Assembly (NCBI GenBank): GCA_964567265.1
Contig: CAZMLK010000001.1
Location: forward strand, 395,723-459,722
Direction of reading: 5' to 3'
Length of the DNA stretch: 64,000 bases
From: an uncultured Candidatus Saccharibacteria bacterium
GTDB lineage: Bacteria; Patescibacteriota; Minisyncoccia; Phycocordibacterales; UBA12088
Shown piece after piece: positions 8,094 to 57,719 of this stretch. The position numbers and the translations under genes were made by a program. Every line of letters begins with the position of its first letter. Within the stretch, counting starts at the first letter, position 1. The notes beneath the pieces are model-generated. The model saw only the letters and a list, made by a program, of their open reading frames with translations. It searched no databases and was not told the origin of the DNA.

Positions 8094-8681
8094 TTACAGC
8101 CAGGGAATGTCGAATTGATCGAATTCCGGCAGGAGCTTCCGGTCATAGAGGAGGCGAGAGATCACTTCTGCATGTGAGAGCGCGCCTGTGAGCGCATTGT
8201 GCGGTTCCGGCTCGCTGGGGACACCGACGTAATTGAGAATCGCATCGAGATCGAGCGCTGAACGATTGTGCGCAAGGGGTGGCGTCTGTCCGCGTTTCAC
8301 CATGTGCATGTAGGCGAGGGTGTGGGTGTCGAGCGTGCGGTACGCGAGCGTCCAGTTCTCATGGACGCGAAGCGCTGCTGCTTTTAGGAAATCGCGATCG
8401 AAGGAGACGTTCTGGCCCGCGAGCGTGTGATCCTCGATCGGCTCCTTCCACGCGAGGAATTCACGGATCAAATCCCCTTCCGTCTCCTTGGTCGGGTCGG
8501 TGATCTCATCTTCCGAGAAGCCGTTGACGCGCATCGCATCCTCCATGACATGGGCACCCTCCCAGATGCGGCATTCGCGGTAAAAGCGATTCTCGGGATG
8601 GTGAAAATCAAGCGCACCCACGGAGACGATGGAATGCTTGTCGTAATTGGTGCCTGAGGCTTCGACGTCGACGACTATCAT
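8094..8681 (-). CDS. DEDDh-type 3'-5' exonuclease (DnaQ/RNase T-like)
   Basis: VVDVEASG (ExoI), AGQNVSFDRDFL (ExoII), HNALTGALSHAEV (ExoIII, H-x4-D-like). Confidence 0.8.
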   Translation of the reverse strand: MIVVDVEASGTNYDKHSIVSVGALDFHHPENRFYRECRIWEGAHVMEDAMRVNGFSEDEITDPTKETEGDLIREFLAWKEPIEDHTLAGQNVSFDRDFLKAAALRVHENWTLAYRTLDTHTLAYMHMVKRGQTPPLAHNRSALDLDAILNYVGVPSEPEPHNALTGALSHAEVISRLLYDRKLLPEFDQFDIPWL

Positions 8682-9748: not shown

Positions 9749-9774
9749 CCGCAGGCTCTCGCCTGCGGTTTTTT
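9749..9774 (+). terminator. rho-independent terminator of rpmA
   Basis: CCGCAGGC-tctc-GCCTGCGG followed by TTTTTT. Confidence 0.85.
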
Positions 9775-23276: not shown

Positions 23277-23306
23277 GCCCCCGCGCCTTCGGCGCGGGGG
23301 CTTTTT
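23277..23306. terminator. bidirectional terminator
   Basis: AAAAA-GCCCCCGCGCC-ttc-GGCGCGGGGGC-TTTTT. Confidence 0.85.
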
Positions 23307-25862: not shown

Positions 25863-25891
25863 AGAGGCCGCGCGAAGCGCGGCCTCTTTTT
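25863..25891. terminator. bidirectional terminator downstream of the beta-helix gene
   Basis: AGAGGCCGCGC-gaa-GCGCGGCCTCT flanked by A and T runs. Confidence 0.8.
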
Positions 25892-43950: not shown

Positions 43951-44253
43951 TTAGTTCCTGCCGATCTGGAGATACCGTCTCGAAAGCGGCACGAGGGAAG
44001 CGGCGAGGAGCGCGAGCGTCGTCATCAAAAAATGCGTCTCGATGCCCACGACCATGGTCCCGCCGTAGAGCACGTCCGCAACGACGGCAACGGCGATGAG
44101 CTCGTACCAGCCGAAGTATACCAGCGTTCCCAACGTCGCGGGGATCGCGAGCCACCACGGCGCCAGGAACGCGGCAGCGAAGAGCAGCGCATCAATGCCG
44201 ACTCTTCTTGGCAAACCGGAATCCTTTTTTTGCGGACGACGTCGTTCAAGCAT
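43951..44253 (-). CDS. mreD: MreD-like membrane protein
   Basis: 100-aa polytopic membrane ORF between mreC and mrdA. The call is positional. Confidence 0.55.
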   Translation of the reverse strand: MLERRRPQKKDSGLPRRVGIDALLFAAAFLAPWWLAIPATLGTLVYFGWYELIAVAVVADVLYGGTMVVGIETHFLMTTLALLAASLVPLSRRYLQIGRN

Positions 44254-44271
44254 GAGAAAACGGATGCTGCA

Positions 44272-45090
44272 TTACTGCGCGCTTGTCGAGGTCGCACCCG
44301 CGGGCGCGATTTCGACCGTACGGAGCTCGCGGATGTTGACGGGACTTTTCGCGAGCGCGGTCTCGAACGAATCAGCAGCCTTCGAGCGCAGCGCGCCGAC
44401 GAGCGCGACCAAGGAGCTCGTGATTCCAGGAAGCGCGATCGGAGAATTGGTAGCAGCGATCGTACCCCGCGGAAGCTGCACGATGAAATTCCCGCCGCCC
44501 TGCCCGATCAAGGAGACGGACACCGAGGTCGTCGCCTGGAGGATATCCGCGCTGGTGCTGACTCCGGGAGACGAATACAGCGTGACCCGCGCACGGCTCG
44601 GCCCCACCTCTTCGACCGTGCCGAGCGCGAGCGCGCCGTAGGCGTACACCTTGTCCCCTTTCCGGATGCCACTCTCCTGCCCCGCGTCGATGACGAGCGA
44701 ATCATACGGAATCTCGGGCGGCCGGAGCAGGATGCCCGCGCGGATGCGCGCCCTCTCGGGATTGCGTCCCGCGAATGCGCGCAGGGACTCGTTTTCAGCC
44801 TCAAGAAGTGTCATCGCGACGCTTTTCGCGTTTGCATCGCGGAGTTCCTGCTTCAGCGCGGCATTCTCGTCAACGAGCGCGCGCTTGGAGCGGAGGAGCT
44901 CGATGACGGTACCCGATGACGCGACCGTGCCCGATTCTATCGATGCGACCGGGCGGAGCACGCCGAACACGAGGTTCTCGAGGAACGCCGGCGGCTTCGC
45001 GAAGAAGAAAAGCGCAACGACCAAAAGCGCTCCCATCACTGCGAGCTTGTAGCGGCTGAATGCTGTTTTACGTTCCTGGAGAGAGCGCAT
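44272..45090 (-). CDS. mreC: rod shape-determining protein MreC
   Basis: N-terminal TM helix, coiled coil (LKQELRDANAK), and beta-barrel repeats (GIRKGD.V, GLIGQ-like). Position after mreB. Confidence 0.85.
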   Translation of the reverse strand: MRSLQERKTAFSRYKLAVMGALLVVALFFFAKPPAFLENLVFGVLRPVASIESGTVASSGTVIELLRSKRALVDENAALKQELRDANAKSVAMTLLEAENESLRAFAGRNPERARIRAGILLRPPEIPYDSLVIDAGQESGIRKGDKVYAYGALALGTVEEVGPSRARVTLYSSPGVSTSADILQATTSVSVSLIGQGGGNFIVQLPRGTIAATNSPIALPGITSSLVALVGALRSKAADSFETALAKSPVNIRELRTVEIAPAGATSTSAQ

Positions 45091-46141
45091 CTTCGCTTTC
45101 TATGAGCACGTCCGTATGCTGGTCGAGGGTTTCAATGATAACACCGGTTCCGCGCACGACGGAGGTCAACGGATCGTTCGAGCGGTACACCGGGATCTTG
45201 AGGATCGCCGTCAAAAATTCGGGCATGCCGCGGATGAGCGCGCCGCCGCCGACCAAGTGGATGCCGCGCTGCATCACGTCCGCCAGGACTTCAGGCGGCG
45301 TGGTCTCGAGGACCTCGCGGACGGATTCGACCAAGGTATCGATGGAATGGGAAATCGCTTCGCGGATATCGGCGTCTGTAATGACGACCTCACGCGGGAG
45401 GCCGGTCACGAGATCGCGGCCGCGTACGGTCGCTTCGATCGGCGCATCGCCCGGAGATACGGAACAAGCAGCAATCTTGAGCTCCTCCGAGGTCTTCTCG
45501 CCGATCAATATCTTGAATTCGCTCCGGATGTAGGAGGCGATGTCGGCATTCAGCTTGTCGCCCGCGACGCGGAGATTCTTCGCGCGCACGATGCCGGAAA
45601 GCGAGATGACGGCGATATCGGTCGTGCCGCCGCCGATGTCTATGATCATGCTGCCGATCGGCGCATGGATCGGCAGCTTGATGCCGATCGCGGCAGCCAT
45701 CGGCTCCTCGACGATGTAGACCTCGCGGGCGCCGGCATTCTTCGCTGCATCGCGGACCGCCCGCGTCTCGACGTTCGTGATGCCAGACGGCACGCCGATG
45801 ACGACGCGCGGGCCGAAGATCGTGCGGCGTCCTTCCTGCGCTTTGTTGAGGAGGTATGAAAGCATCTCTTCGGTGACCTCGAAGTCCGAGATCACGCCAT
45901 CAACGAGAGGGCGGACGGCCGTGATGTGGGTCGGCGTGCGGCCGAGCATGTCCTTCGCCTGCGCTCCGACGGCGACCACCTGGCCCGTCTTCTGGTTGAT
46001 GGCGACGACGGAGGGCTCATTGAGGACGATGCCCTTGCCGCGAACATACACGAGCGTGTTCGCCGTGCCGAGATCGATGCCGATGTCATTCGAGAAGAGG
46101 TGCGAGAACCTCCCGAACATTTTTTTGAGTCTTTCTACCAT
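45068..46141 (-). CDS. mreB: rod shape-determining protein MreB
   Basis: IGIDLGTANTLVYVRGKGIVLNEPSVVA, DIGGGTTD and GGGALIRG, the actin/MreB fold motifs. Confidence 0.95.
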   Translation of the reverse strand: MVERLKKMFGRFSHLFSNDIGIDLGTANTLVYVRGKGIVLNEPSVVAINQKTGQVVAVGAQAKDMLGRTPTHITAVRPLVDGVISDFEVTEEMLSYLLNKAQEGRRTIFGPRVVIGVPSGITNVETRAVRDAAKNAGAREVYIVEEPMAAAIGIKLPIHAPIGSMIIDIGGGTTDIAVISLSGIVRAKNLRVAGDKLNADIASYIRSEFKILIGEKTSEELKIAACSVSPGDAPIEATVRGRDLVTGLPREVVITDADIREAISHSIDTLVESVREVLETTPPEVLADVMQRGIHLVGGGALIRGMPEFLTAILKIPVYRSNDPLTSVVRGTGVIIETLDQHTDVLIESEDALSPGT

Positions 46142-46231: not shown

Positions 46232-47482
46232 TTATCTCTGAACGAACGACGCGAGCTCCTCGAGGGTCACTTTTGAGATTTCTCCTGTCGCGCGCTCGAC
46301 GACTTCGATCTTCCCGTCGGCGATGGTCTTCGCGGATACGACGGCACGGAACGGCATGCCGAGGAGATCGCTGTCGGCGAACTTCTCGCCTGCACGGAGA
46401 TCGCGATCGTCGTAGAGCACCTCGATGCCGCTCGCGGAAAGCGCTGCGTACAACTCCTCAGCCGCCTTCACCACCGCCTCGTCATTGCCGAGCTGCACCA
46501 CATGGATCTTGAACGGCGCGACTTCGAGGGGCCAGACGATGCCGTTCTCATCTGAAAGCGTTTCAACAATCGTACCCATGACGCGGGAGGGCCCGAGGCC
46601 ATAGCATCCCATCACGACCGGCACGTCCTCCCCTTCCTCATTCTTGTAGAGGAGGCCGAGTGCCTCCGAGAAACGAGTTCCGAGCGTGAAAATATTTCCC
46701 GTTTCAATCGCCTTCCGCTCGACCAGCTTCGCTTTGTCGAGCCCGAGATCTGCGATGACTTCGTCCGTATAGACTTCCTTGTTGAGCGCGATTCCGCGCT
46801 CCTCGTCGACATAAATCAAATCTTCGCCTGCATCAGACACCGTCTGGAATTCCTCGCTGTATTTCGAGAAGATGCCGCCCGCCGCGAACGTGACGAAGGT
46901 CCGATCGCCGAGACCTATGCGCTCAAAGATTTTCTTGTATGCGCGCTTAATCTTTTCGTAGAGTTCTTTGTGTTCCTCATCAGAGCGCGCGAACGAATAC
47001 ATATCCTTCATAAAAAATTCGCGTCCGCGCATGATGCCCGATTTCGCACGCGTTTCATTGCGGAACTTCTCCTGGACCTGGTAGGCCATGACTGGAAGAT
47101 CGCGATAGGAATGGATGAAGTCGGTCATGATGCGCGTCACCGGCTCCTCGTGCGTGATGCCGAGCCCGACGGTCCCGCCCACCTTGAGTTCAGTCTTGAA
47201 CCAATTGTCGACTTTTGCATCGTCCCACCGATCCGTCTTCTCCCAGAGCGTCTTATCCTGGAACACGGTCATGAGCAACTCCTGGCCGCCGATAGCGTCC
47301 ATTTCTTCTCGCACGATGCGGCAGATATTATTGAAAGTGCGGAGGCCGAGCGGCAGAAGCGTGTAGACGCCGGCCATCTCCTTATGGATGTAACCGCCGC
47401 GGATCAGGAGTTCTGCATTCTTGGCGACCTCGTCTTTCGGCGCTTCCTTGCGGGTTTTGGTGAAAAGTGCGGATTGGCGCAT
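46232..47482 (-). CDS. proS: prolyl-tRNA synthetase (short form without insertion/editing domain)
   Basis: MRQSALFTKTRKEAPKDEVAKNAELLIRGGYI ... FRNE.R...G..R.REF.MKD (class II motifs). Start set at the Met preceded by the TTGACC-N16-TACAAT promoter. Track ORF extends to 47833. Confidence 0.9.
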   Translation of the reverse strand: MRQSALFTKTRKEAPKDEVAKNAELLIRGGYIHKEMAGVYTLLPLGLRTFNNICRIVREEMDAIGGQELLMTVFQDKTLWEKTDRWDDAKVDNWFKTELKVGGTVGLGITHEEPVTRIMTDFIHSYRDLPVMAYQVQEKFRNETRAKSGIMRGREFFMKDMYSFARSDEEHKELYEKIKRAYKKIFERIGLGDRTFVTFAAGGIFSKYSEEFQTVSDAGEDLIYVDEERGIALNKEVYTDEVIADLGLDKAKLVERKAIETGNIFTLGTRFSEALGLLYKNEEGEDVPVVMGCYGLGPSRVMGTIVETLSDENGIVWPLEVAPFKIHVVQLGNDEAVVKAAEELYAALSASGIEVLYDDRDLRAGEKFADSDLLGMPFRAVVSAKTIADGKIEVVERATGEISKVTLEELASFVQR

Positions 47483-47833
47483 ATGTAGAGGCAATTGTAC
47501 AGGAAAAGGGTGCCTGGTCAAAAAGGAAAATGGCCGCTCTCCTTCGGGGAGCGGCCAGCTTGAAACGGGTGTCGGCAGGGTATGCCCGCCATCAGGAGGC
47601 ATCGGGGCGAGGTCGATGGTCGCCTCAAGAAGTATTTCTGCGATCGTGAAGAGTACGACAAGCGACCAGAGAAGCATGAACAGCGTCGCGAAGACGATGA
47701 GACGGAATTGAGTATCAACCGCGATGATGTAAATCGTTGGCGCGCAGAGAATAGTTGCGGCAACGAAACAGACACAGACGATGAGCTGGGTGTCACGCGA
47801 AAGCCCGGACATGGCTAATCTCCATGAAATCAC
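47483..47833 (-). CDS. possible small 2-TM membrane protein ORF with no stop codon of its own (in frame with proS)
   Basis: LIVCVCFVAATILCAPTIYIIAV and LIVFATLFMLLWSLVVLFTIAEILL. The frame runs through a terminator and a promoter into the proS ATG. Confidence 0.3.
47494..47521 (-). promoter_or_regulatory. sigma70-like promoter of proS
   Basis: Minus strand: TTGACC-16 nt-TACAAT-11 nt-ATG (47482). Confidence 0.6.
47522..47556 (-). terminator. rho-independent terminator inside the extended proS ORF
   Basis: Minus strand: GGCCGCTCCC-cgaa-GGAGAGCGGCC followed by ATTTTCCTTTTT. Confidence 0.7.
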
Positions 47834-47893
47834 TCTGTTCTTGTCTCAAAATAGGCGCTCCCTGGATGCGTGTCAAACGGACGCACCGAATGT

Positions 47894-48196
47894 CTAGTGG
47901 AGCGACCGGTCACGAATCACCTCGAGGTCTTCCATGATCTCGGCGAGATCTTCTGGGGTATAGACTTGCTTCTCTGAATGATCCTCTGTCCACAACCTGA
48001 ACGCTTCCGCCATGCCGCTTTCAATCCACTCCGCCATCGCGTCACGAGCGGTTGCGGTGCCATCCTTTGAGAGCTCAGGATGCTCTTCGGCAAAATACAT
48101 GATGAGCTGCTTCTGAAGACCCATCTGCTCGCGAAAATTCTCAGGATGGAATTCCTGCCCGCCGTCGCTCTCTTTCGGCCATTCACTTGGACTCAT
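47894..48196 (-). CDS. hypothetical acidic protein (100 aa)
   Basis: Start set at MSPSEWPK to avoid overlap with rseP. No recognised motif. Confidence 0.45.
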   Translation of the reverse strand: MSPSEWPKESDGGQEFHPENFREQMGLQKQLIMYFAEEHPELSKDGTATARDAMAEWIESGMAEAFRLWTEDHSEKQVYTPEDLAEIMEDLEVIRDRSLH

Positions 48197-48206
48197 GCCG
48201 TGATTC

Positions 48207-49316
48207 TTAGAATAACCGGACGATATCCTGGTACGTAATAGCGGCCATGAGGACAAGAAGAAGGATAAGGCCGCCTGCATTGAGAAAGTTCGCAATCTTA
48301 GGGGAAATCGGAGTTCCTTTCACCGCCTCGATGAGGACGAAGAGGAGCCGGCCGCCGTCCAAAGCCGGGAATGGGAGCACGTTGATCACGGCCAGGTTCA
48401 GCGAGATGAATGCGGTGAAAGTGATCAGATAGACGAGGCCGAGGCGGGACGCATCGCCGACGAGCCCGACGATGCCGACGGGGCCGGTCACCTGCGAGAG
48501 ATCGGCCTTGAGGACGAATGCACTCTTGAAGAAGGTCACGAGGCCTGCCGCGACTTCATACGTCTTCTGTCCCGTCATGATCGCGCCTTCATAGAGCGCG
48601 CGCACCGGATTGTATTTCAAGGTTGCCGTGAGCGCCATCACGATACCGGCAGCGGCACGATCAGGCTCATCCTTGATGATGCCTTTTACCGGAGTCACGG
48701 TCAGGATTCCCGATTCATTGGCGCGTTCGTACGAAACGACCAACGGCAGGTTACCGTGGCTCGCGATGAAACGGAGGACGGAATCGGGACTAAGCGCGTT
48801 CCCTTCAAGCGACTCGGCGGAACCTGCCTCTATTTTTGAAATCACGTCACCCGGCTTGAGGCCTGCCTCGGATCCCGGCGCATCCGGAACGACTGCGACG
48901 ATCTCTACCTTCGCATCCGGAACGGTGTCACGGTCTTCAGGTGCGAGCGAGGTCGGCATGCCGATCATGAACCCGAGCGAAAATAGGAGCCACGCGAAGA
49001 GGATGTTGCCGATGATGCCTGCGAGGAGGATCAGCGCCTGGACCCATTTCGGCTTGTTCGGAAAACTCCGCGCGCTGTCGGGCCCGGCAAGTGACGCATC
49101 GTCAGGATCCTCGCCGAAGATCTTCACGTAGCCGCCGATCGGGAGGAGGTTGAGGACGTAGCGCGTCTCGCCCCGCTTGATACTCGCGACCTTCGGCGGG
49201 AAACCGAGCGCGAATTCATCGACGCGGACGCCGAGCTTCTTGGCGGTGATGAAATGCCCGAACTCGTGGACAAAGACCAGGGTGCCGAGCACGAGGAGGA
49301 AGAGGACTATGGACAT
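48207..49316 (-). CDS. rseP: RIP metalloprotease RseP (M50 site-2 protease) with PDZ domain
   Basis: VHEFGHFITAKK (HExxH), PDZ segment (GLKPGDVI), and NVLPFPALDGG. Confidence 0.9.
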   Translation of the reverse strand: MSIVLFLLVLGTLVFVHEFGHFITAKKLGVRVDEFALGFPPKVASIKRGETRYVLNLLPIGGYVKIFGEDPDDASLAGPDSARSFPNKPKWVQALILLAGIIGNILFAWLLFSLGFMIGMPTSLAPEDRDTVPDAKVEIVAVVPDAPGSEAGLKPGDVISKIEAGSAESLEGNALSPDSVLRFIASHGNLPLVVSYERANESGILTVTPVKGIIKDEPDRAAAGIVMALTATLKYNPVRALYEGAIMTGQKTYEVAAGLVTFFKSAFVLKADLSQVTGPVGIVGLVGDASRLGLVYLITFTAFISLNLAVINVLPFPALDGGRLLFVLIEAVKGTPISPKIANFLNAGGLILLLVLMAAITYQDIVRLF

Positions 49317-57146: not shown

Positions 57147-57680
57147 TTGAGACCACGTCTGCAAATAGTAGATATAGGGAATCGGACGCACGCGACGATC
57201 ATAGCGGAAGCACGACGATTGTCGGTAGGCGTGGAGATGCGCGGCAAGGAGCGGACAGCATTTGTTGGCATCGAATTCGATCTCGGAACGCTTACGATGC
57301 TTTCTCCCTTGTTCCGGCACATGGACACTCTCGGGGACGAGCCGAGAGTTTATGTCTTCAATGAGCACCTTGAAGCACCAGATCTCTGCGTCATTTTTTT
57401 GACGCACACGACTGGCACCAAACTCTTAGAGGAGATCATGGGTCGAAACGACCTTGCAGGGTTTCAATCACCCCCAGATACGACAATCTTTGCGACCGCG
57501 GAGGCAAACATCCCGATGGCGGGGTCACTTGATGACTTCCTCGCAATCTATGCTGGCAGAGGATTTGCGAAAGTACTGATCCTCGAATCACTTGATCGGG
57601 TGTCCGAGCGCGTACCCTTCTACACGTTCCCTACAGCGCCCGTATCCAGACGCAACCCCCTGGATGAAATGAAAACCTAA
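57147..57680 (+). CDS. hypothetical protein (177 aa, TTG start)
   Basis: GGAGAGGAG RBS and a terminator. No recognised motif. Confidence 0.5.
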   Translation: MRPRLQIVDIGNRTHATIIAEARRLSVGVEMRGKERTAFVGIEFDLGTLTMLSPLFRHMDTLGDEPRVYVFNEHLEAPDLCVIFLTHTTGTKLLEEIMGRNDLAGFQSPPDTTIFATAEANIPMAGSLDDFLAIYAGRGFAKVLILESLDRVSERVPFYTFPTAPVSRRNPLDEMKT

Positions 57681-57719
57681 CCCCGACGAAGCCCCGGCTT
57701 CGTCGGGGTTTCTCTTTTC
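57681..57719. terminator. bidirectional terminator (repeat family copy 2)
   Basis: CCCCGACGAAGC-cccg-GCTTCGTCGGGG followed by TTTCTCTTTT. Confidence 0.8.

Follow-up and report, generated by a model that had tools for sequence, protein, structure and literature searches.

Conserved genes whose reading frame enters their own transcription terminator without a stop codon are, to our knowledge, very rare. The cases described so far, arfA and brfA, act as regulators by sensing trans-translation, and their products are small, soluble ribosome-rescue factors with basic tails. In brfA of Bacillus subtilis, a rho-independent terminator lies within the open reading frame (ORF); termination at this internal site has been demonstrated, the mRNA is non-stop, and the product is SsrA tagged, with the stop codon standing 9 codons past the termination point (PMC6881298). 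In arfA of Escherichia coli, a hairpin within the coding frame leaves the mature mRNA without a stop codon (PMC10107115). A second comparison is offered by CAAD, a pair of transmembrane (TM) helices joined to cyanobacterial aminoacyl-tRNA synthetases (aaRSs), at least one of which is thought to have been fused from a neighboring small membrane-protein gene (PMC4893482). Here we describe a locus that bears on both. It lies in a 64,000-nucleotide (nt) stretch of DNA, hereafter the window, from an uncultured Candidatus Saccharibacteria bacterium (contig CAZMLK010000001.1, positions 395,723 to 459,722), where a small membrane-protein ORF that lacks a stop codon runs through a terminator and into proS, the gene for prolyl-tRNA synthetase (ProRS).

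Like arfA and brfA, the small ORF has a terminator inside its frame, upstream of any stop codon, and the arrangement is kept in four alleles: that of the window and those of three relatives, L161, L162, and L165. It differs from them in its product, predicted to be a two-helix membrane hairpin with an acidic, proline-rich tail that shows no sequence or profile similarity to theirs (Pfam, NCBIfam, PDB). It differs also in the distance to the next in-frame stop, which lies 65 codons beyond the terminator in L161 and about 430 codons beyond it in the window, either in the body of the following gene or at its end. The comparison supports a natural non-stop gene architecture built around a protein unrelated to ArfA or BrfA, in which transcription would terminate inside the ORF.

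The gene order on the minus strand is rseP, orf100, small ORF, proS, and mreB. A sequence-only reading of the window had drawn attention to the ORF 46232..47833, which extends ProRS upstream by 117 amino acids (aa) with two TM helices, and to a terminator and a promoter at the junction. The ORF is present on the minus strand in the ProRS frame; in the ORF list it has a GTG start and 533 aa. From the ProRS ATG at 47482, the proS frame can be read upstream for 121 codons before it meets a stop, the TGA at 47848-47846. Its first start codon is the GTG at 47833, and an ATG stands at 47812, 110 codons 5' of the ProRS ATG. Openness of the upstream frame is by itself rare but not unheard of: the window has the second longest open stretch before proS of 160 loci (median, 12 codons; maxima elsewhere, 133, 102, 102, and 89). 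Public gene calls give a 526-aa ProRS (P0005, and P0125 in L165 and L166). By eye, from two printed sequences, P0005 is identical to the window translation from ATG 47812; exact look-ups of the window proS forms, P0005, and orf100 returned no record in the contig index. On balance, we think it somewhat more likely than not that this 533/526-aa ORF is two transcription units that share a frame by chance, a judgment that takes in the whole picture of two units, a non-stop mRNA from the small gene, and a fusion made as a by-product of read-through. The public gene model would then merge an orphan membrane-protein gene with a 416-aa proS and should be split.

An exhaustive HMMER scan of 1.84 billion representatives found a single homolog of the small-ORF protein, P0001 (161 aa, E = 6e-31), which is 61% identical over residues 1-99 and is the product of the L161 ORF. 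A profile search added no homologs beyond this match, and none was found by a word-indexed protein search or by tblastn against the 160 ProRS loci. The L161 contig (1250 nt) carries orf100, the small ORF, the hairpin, the promoter, and proS, and its ProRS is 98% identical to that of the window at a synonymous divergence (dS) of about 0.8-0.9. Exact look-ups using the MreB and ProRS cluster brought in the two further alleles, L162 and L165. Over the 291 nt from ATG 47812 to the T-run that ends the terminator, the four alleles align with zero indels at a nucleotide divergence of up to ~38%. The small-ORF frame is the only one free of stop codons in all four; every other sense or antisense frame is stopped in at least one allele. 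Pairwise ratios of nonsynonymous to synonymous divergence (dN/dS) are 0.14-0.26, falling to 0.07 in the helix region between L162 and L161, and substitutions pile up at codon position 3 (for example, 27, 19, and 56 at the three positions). The tail shows the same bias: between the window and L165 the differences per codon position number 6, 0, and 14, the proportions of synonymous and nonsynonymous differences (pS and pN) are 0.82 and 0.15, and P70, P72, P73, D74, G75, G76, P80, and P82 are unchanged in the four alleles amid many synonymous changes. These patterns mark the upstream ORF as a genuine protein-coding gene. The other interpretation offered by the sequence-only reading, a spurious extension whose hydrophobicity is coincidental, is rejected for the ORF by dN/dS and by the conserved frame and start signals.

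Two other coding arrangements were considered and rejected. A coding end near 47610, with a 1-nt indel in a CCCC run hiding an off-frame TGA at 47594, does not agree with four indel-free alleles, and an antisense 78-aa ORF at 47582..47818 on the plus strand has stops in other alleles and a dN/dS near 1.

The start of the extension needs correction. Its open frame stands, but GTG 47833 is missing from L161, while ATG 47812 is found in all four alleles together with a Shine-Dalgarno (SD)-like motif 6 nt 5' of it (GGAGA at 47819..47823, found by direct reading of the sequence), kept in every allele as GGAGA or GGGGA. The conserved start is ATG 47812 and not GTG 47833. Upstream of it, a scan located a promoter-like site, P1, at 47848..47876 on the minus strand (TTGACA-17-TATTTT, 10/12 matches). 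Its -35 TTGACA is invariant in the four alleles, its -10 is TATTTT or TACTTT (TAyTTT), and the 17-nt spacing is kept, in intergenic DNA that is only ~60% identical among alleles; we infer that P1 is the promoter of the small gene. SD-like motifs are rare at the other gene starts of the window, and the small ORF is unusual among its genes in having a conserved GGAGA.

The two TM helices of the extension were borne out. Kyte-Doolittle windows reach 2.06, and AlphaFold2 models a helical hairpin with helices at residues 6-32 and 34-67 (47612..47797; predicted local distance difference test scores, 70-82), followed by a proline-rich tail predicted to be disordered (codons 68-85, 47558..47611). Two or more such hydrophobic segments occur in 1.2% of all 70-aa open-frame windows of the 64 kb, mostly within genuine membrane genes. 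By codon usage the hydrophobic 67 codons are gene-like, with a score of +22 that 1.8% of off-frame windows reach. The small protein has no family match in Pfam, NCBIfam, or PDB, and no Pfam family, CAAD/CURT1 included, matches the 117-aa extension at E <= 0.1. The gene evolves fast, with a dN of ~0.23-0.29 vs 0.009 for proS, and so far appears restricted to one genus-level clade.

The intrinsic terminator placed in the junction by the sequence-only reading is there, and its hairpin is stable. The hairpin GGCCGCTCCCCGAAGGAGAGCGGCC lies inside the ORF at 47532..47556 on the minus strand (codons W86-P94) and is followed by the U-tract ATTTTCCTTTTT (47520..47531, its last T5 at 47524-47520). In the window the stem has 10 pairs and one C.A mismatch (-18.5 to -20.9 kcal/mol), and its sequence is unique within the 64 kb. 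L162 and L165 have a perfect 11-bp stem (-24.8 kcal/mol), and L161 has one compensatory C-G to U-A change, made at the cost of an E-to-K replacement in the protein. Hairpin and U-tract occupy codons 86-98 of the stop-less frame, and folding and comparison of the four alleles both indicate a conserved terminator.

Hairpins also stand at the equivalent site upstream of proS in more distant relatives (L002, L006, L009, L053, and L164). As in the window, the T-run of each overlaps a TTGACC-like -35, and a TAnnnT lies 6-11 nt before the proS ATG, so this Paceibacteria proS junction is shared. L002, which we read base by base, has the module directly after the normal stop codon of a weak homolog of orf100. 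Since the same hairpin, T-run, and -35 recur in distant relatives, the terminator-promoter junction is ancestral and ordinary. In L002 the upstream gene stops before the hairpin, whereas in the window genus the ORF runs through it; the unusual part is the ORF that lies before the junction, rather than the junction itself.

Other features around the hairpin were recorded. L164, whose ProRS is 81% identical, has a different hairpin at the same site, GCCCCCGCCTCC…GGAGCGGGGGC (-21.9 kcal/mol), followed by TTGACC-16-TACAAT-9-ATG. In L164 1-95, where the contig breaks off 92 nt upstream, the hairpin loop contains the TGA that closes one upstream frame (…IKPPPPS-TGA), a possible counterpart of the small ORF. 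A check of the window for flanking repeats, such as a mobile insertion might leave, gave only a weak likeness between GGGAGCGCCTATTTT (47862-47848), just 5' of the small ORF, and GAGAGCGGCCATTTT, the terminator's 3' half. An older terminator that once followed orf100 may have left this sequence behind, insertion of the small gene may have duplicated it, or the likeness may be due to chance. A 20-nt long-range inverted repeat that is 75% complementary (47862-47843 with 47566-47547) is not above chance.

The small ORF itself, as mapped, covers codons 1-97 from ATG 47812 to the T-run (47522..47812, minus strand) with no in-frame stop. A stop before or in the terminator is found in none of the four alleles. 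The four assemblies are independent and stem from different samples, which excludes loss of the stop through a sequencing error, the possibility raised at the outset. The length of the T-run sets the frame in which the ORF enters proS. With T5, in the window, L162, and L165, it is in frame and gives the 526-aa calls; with T6, in L161, it runs into proS in another frame and meets a stop after 52 codons of that gene, which yields the 161-aa P0001. The three T5 alleles are identical from hairpin to proS; hence they amount to roughly one observation, with a prior chance of 1 in 3 of being in frame. L161 is out of frame and its small ORF is nonetheless strongly constrained, so the in-frame link to proS is incidental. 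The fusion looks like a by-product of T-run length and no selected feature. A programmed frameshift to the TGA inside TTGACC was considered and set aside: it would need +1 in the window and -1 in L161 and hence is not conserved. We found no convincing case of another ORF crossing a strong terminator in the window, which argues that the stop-less layout is no genome-wide habit.

Of the first interpretation in the sequence-only reading, then, the small membrane-protein gene without a stop stood, with four alleles and purifying selection behind it; the proposed comparison of proS upstream regions did reveal a conserved stop-less ORF in the close relatives L161, L162, and L165. The link to ProRS did not stand as a conserved feature, given L161 and ~155 more distant relatives in which no N-terminal ProRS extension was found.

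By the same comparisons, proS (46232..47482, minus strand) is a separate, ordinary gene with its conserved start at ATG 47482. Its 416-aa product contains the Pfam domains tRNA-synt_2b (PF00587) and HGTP_anticodon (PF03129), the NCBIfam ProRS profiles align from residue 1 of this form, and the ProRS alignment begins at the homolog of M1 of MRQSALF in all 160 loci. By its ProRS relatives the window belongs to the Patescibacteria (Paceibacteria/Parcubacteria), although the best ProRS matches in two large collections are only ~70% identical. Analogous small TM ORFs running into proS were sought in the distant relatives; there are none, and the ORFs that span the proS start there look spurious. 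The predicted promoter, P2, is where the sequence-only reading had put it: a scan places TTGACC-16-TACAAT at 47494..47521 (10/12 positions), with the -35 overlapping the U-tract and the TACAAT ending 11 nt 5' of the ProRS ATG. Both hexamers are identical in the four alleles, the spacer varies, and the same module is found in L164 and L002. Among the relatives, a TANNNT ends 5-12 nt before the proS ATG in 128/155, vs 31/155 at a control position, and an SD-like motif precedes proS in 9/155; none precedes it in the window. The start-adjacent -10 and the rarity of SD motifs indicate that the promoter sits on the proS start codon and that proS mRNA is probably leaderless. A search with cmscan (E <= 10, 47300-48300) gave only chance-level Rfam matches, with no T-box or other known leader.

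Two side observations concern this region. Most gene starts in the window have a TANNNT 6-10 nt 5' of the ATG and no SD, for example, those at 8681(-), 20013(-), 22734(-), 15406(+), and 54777(-), which suggests that mRNAs of this genome are as a rule leaderless. A 95-nt block (47506-47412, minus strand), from the -10 of proS through codon 23, has zero substitutions vs L161, compared with a pS of 0.54 in the rest of proS (P about 6e-6). No conserved RNA structure was found in it across 20 relatives. A leaderless 5'-end constraint or a recent recombination tract is a possible cause.

The comparisons show two units with a conserved terminator and a conserved promoter between them, the first without a stop and the second an ordinary proS; where transcription and translation end is inferred. 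Taken in order along the transcript, the two units could work as follows. Unit 1 is the small gene, which would be transcribed from P1 and translated from its SD and ATG 47812 into the two-helix membrane hairpin with its disordered, proline-rich tail; it may also be the last cistron of a frr-rseP-orf100 transcript. Most unit 1 transcripts would end in the U-tract near 47524 as non-stop mRNAs, so that ribosomes would reach the mRNA 3' end after ~96 codons and need rescue, and the amount of small protein would be set by rescue and tagging instead of by normal termination. Unit 2 is proS, transcribed from P2 to give the normal, soluble 416-aa ProRS. A minority of read-through in the window, L162, and L165 would produce a two-TM-ProRS fusion, that is, a membrane-tethered ProRS, and in L161 a 161-aa protein with an out-of-frame tail. 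The predicted junction peptides of the small ORF-ProRS fusion are …RPFSFLTRHPFPVQLPLHMRQSALF… and …FSFLTRHPFPVQLPLHMRQ…. Membrane-anchored ProRS is possible only as a by-product.

Several points weigh against this picture. The last 43 codons of the extension look non-coding by codon usage. The substitution patterns contradict that indication, and we reject the inference of an untranslated tail since the tail has its own third-position bias and the frame is shared by four alleles. ARAGORN finds no tmRNA in the 64-kb window, which is only part of a genome of roughly 620 kb. The small protein is unlike ArfA and BrfA: it is hydrophobic, its tail is not basic, and it matches no family. To keep making a protein bound for tagging would seem a waste, barring a regulatory role or low expression. 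A ribosome coupled closely behind the polymerase could suppress termination, and read-through would then become the main route. Finally, the clade is shallow, and there are four alleles, three of them identical from hairpin to proS; one recent loss of the stop, tolerated and nothing more, may account for the stop-less state.

Whether the stop-less state is itself selected is a separate matter, and we consider it rather unlikely. Selection would make this either a third independently evolved class of gene translated from non-stop mRNA or a device in which ribosome speed over Pro codons gates the terminator. If it is selected, the gene would be the first of the non-stop kind to encode a membrane protein, the reduced-genome Patescibacteria would gain their first such gene, and the abundance of the protein would report the ribosome-rescue capacity of the cell. 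In the alternative role, ribosome speed over the conserved Pro codons would gate a terminator that overlaps the proS promoter. A conserved, selected example would extend the arfA/brfA principle or show that stop-less translation is tolerated by a minimal cell.

The alternative that survives best is that a young gene lost its ancestral stop once, in the common ancestor of the alleles, and that the stop-less state has no function. We regard this as unlikely, at about the level of selection for the stop-less state. The stop may have stood, for example, in the hairpin loop, whose GAA is one mutation from TAA, and with the transcript ending 20-30 nt farther on, rescue would be cheap at low expression. 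A shallow clade and a fast-evolving orphan gene fit such a history, and no segment differs more between strains than the small ORF: the 300 nt at 47553-47852 (L162 2600-2900) contain 57 mismatches vs L162, where the median is 7. L002 has the same terminator after a normal stop, and the L164 frame described above, which ends at a TGA in the hairpin loop of a cut contig, may point the same way. However, a pS of 0.4-0.7 among the alleles means that there was ample time to regain a stop by one mutation, and 0 of 4 did. This account shares its mechanics with the two-unit picture that we prefer and differs from it only in whether the architecture is selected.

A functional fusion is less probable still, and we give it little weight. 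Here translation of the small ORF would suppress the terminator, and membrane-anchored ProRS, the product of a young fusion, would be made alongside soluble ProRS from P2. The frame is shared with proS in three of the four alleles, gene callers annotate a 526-aa protein, and the disordered, proline-rich tail would make a plausible linker. The CAAD enzymes offer a precedent for a two-TM, membrane-anchored aaRS, one that probably arose in at least one case by fusion of neighboring genes, and the window likewise has a small two-helix membrane-protein gene and proS as in-frame neighbors. CAAD, however, belongs integrally to one ORF and is conserved there; here, the two parts are separated, within the would-be linker, by a terminator that is conserved and shows a compensatory change and by a promoter that is conserved as well. 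The frame link is lost in L161, in which the small ORF is still under strong purifying selection, and the three in-frame alleles count essentially once against a prior of 1 in 3. An N-terminal extension occurs in 0 of the ~155 relatives. ProRS, moreover, is dimeric, and its tRNA-synt_2b domain places it in class II. All enzymes in which CAAD has been observed are monomeric and of class I (PMC4893482). The locus can also be seen as a snapshot of a route by which such a small gene might come to be fused to an aaRS, with one base of the T-run deciding the frame.

Slightly further down we place a proline-sensing leader, which we think improbable. Under this proposal the tail of the small ORF controls proS expression in cis. 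With Pro-tRNA(Pro) plentiful, the ribosome would follow the polymerase through the hairpin, termination would be suppressed, and read-through would occlude P2; with Pro-tRNA(Pro) scarce, an upstream stall would let the hairpin form, transcription would end, and P2 would be freed to make more ProRS. Precedent exists in E. coli, where pheST is controlled by a Phe-rich leader peptide. The element lies directly upstream of the ProRS gene, the -35 of P2 overlaps the U-tract, and the model requires the stop codon to be absent. The five Pro residues before the hairpin are invariant in the four alleles while most of their neighbors vary (Fisher p = 0.05); their codons include an EF-P-dependent PPD motif, and three more Pro codons lie inside the hairpin. 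As in the trp, his, and pheST attenuators, a translated ORF meets an intrinsic terminator, here with cognate Pro codons conserved before proS. But classical leaders have 14-30 codons and stop before the terminator, whereas the small ORF has at least 97 and is stop-less; their downstream gene lacks its own promoter and they form antiterminator pairing, whereas proS has the conserved P2. RNAalifold, run on two sequences, found the terminator helix and only short, weak local stems upstream, with no sign in this pair of a conserved antiterminator pairing, and 47300-48300 holds no T-box or other Rfam leader. A leader peptide has no need of a 67-residue, two-helix part under purifying selection. The Pro codons are dispersed rather than clustered, the C-rich arm of the hairpin accounts for part of the Pro content, and distant relatives have the terminator-P2 module without such an ORF.

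That the ORF is an artefact, either non-coding DNA that is open and hydrophobic by chance or the result of a stop codon lost to faulty sequencing or assembly, is barely credible: the non-coding-like codon usage of its last 43 codons, an off-frame TGA at 47594-47592 that a one-base indel would bring into frame, and open stretches of 102-133 codons upstream of proS in 3/159 relatives are outweighed by four independent assemblies from different samples with the same frame and neither indels nor stops, by a dN/dS well below 1 in frame 0 only, and by conserved start signals.

The remaining observations concern strains and neighboring genes. L162 is a strain 96.35% identical to the window over 9.6 kb. 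Its helix-coding part resembles the more distant L161, which makes L162 a recombinant mosaic and points to allele exchange through recombination. Next upstream of the small ORF, orf100 (47894..48196, minus strand) encodes a hydrophilic protein of 100 aa that matches no family. Comparison with L161 shows purifying selection on orf100 (pN 0.087, pS 0.81), and its weak homolog in L002 (28% identity, E about 3e-6) occupies the corresponding position. The gene lacks its own terminator and so is probably co-transcribed with the small ORF. The M50 protease gene rseP lies farther upstream (48207-49316) and mreB downstream of proS (45068-46141), both on the minus strand. The ProRS relatives as a rule keep the rseP-proS-mreB synteny, and the rseP-proS gap, which ranges from 8 nt to ~2.9 kb, is thus a variable slot.

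Elsewhere in the window, mreC and the PBP2 gene flank a small hydrophobic ORF (43951-44271, minus strand; L162 6256-6519) that is called at 87 aa in relatives. It is probably mreD, with no Pfam match on record. Perfect GC-rich hairpins with T-runs on both strands occur at 23279-23299, 25866-25884, 57677-57710, and 9750-9768 and are apparently bidirectional terminators.

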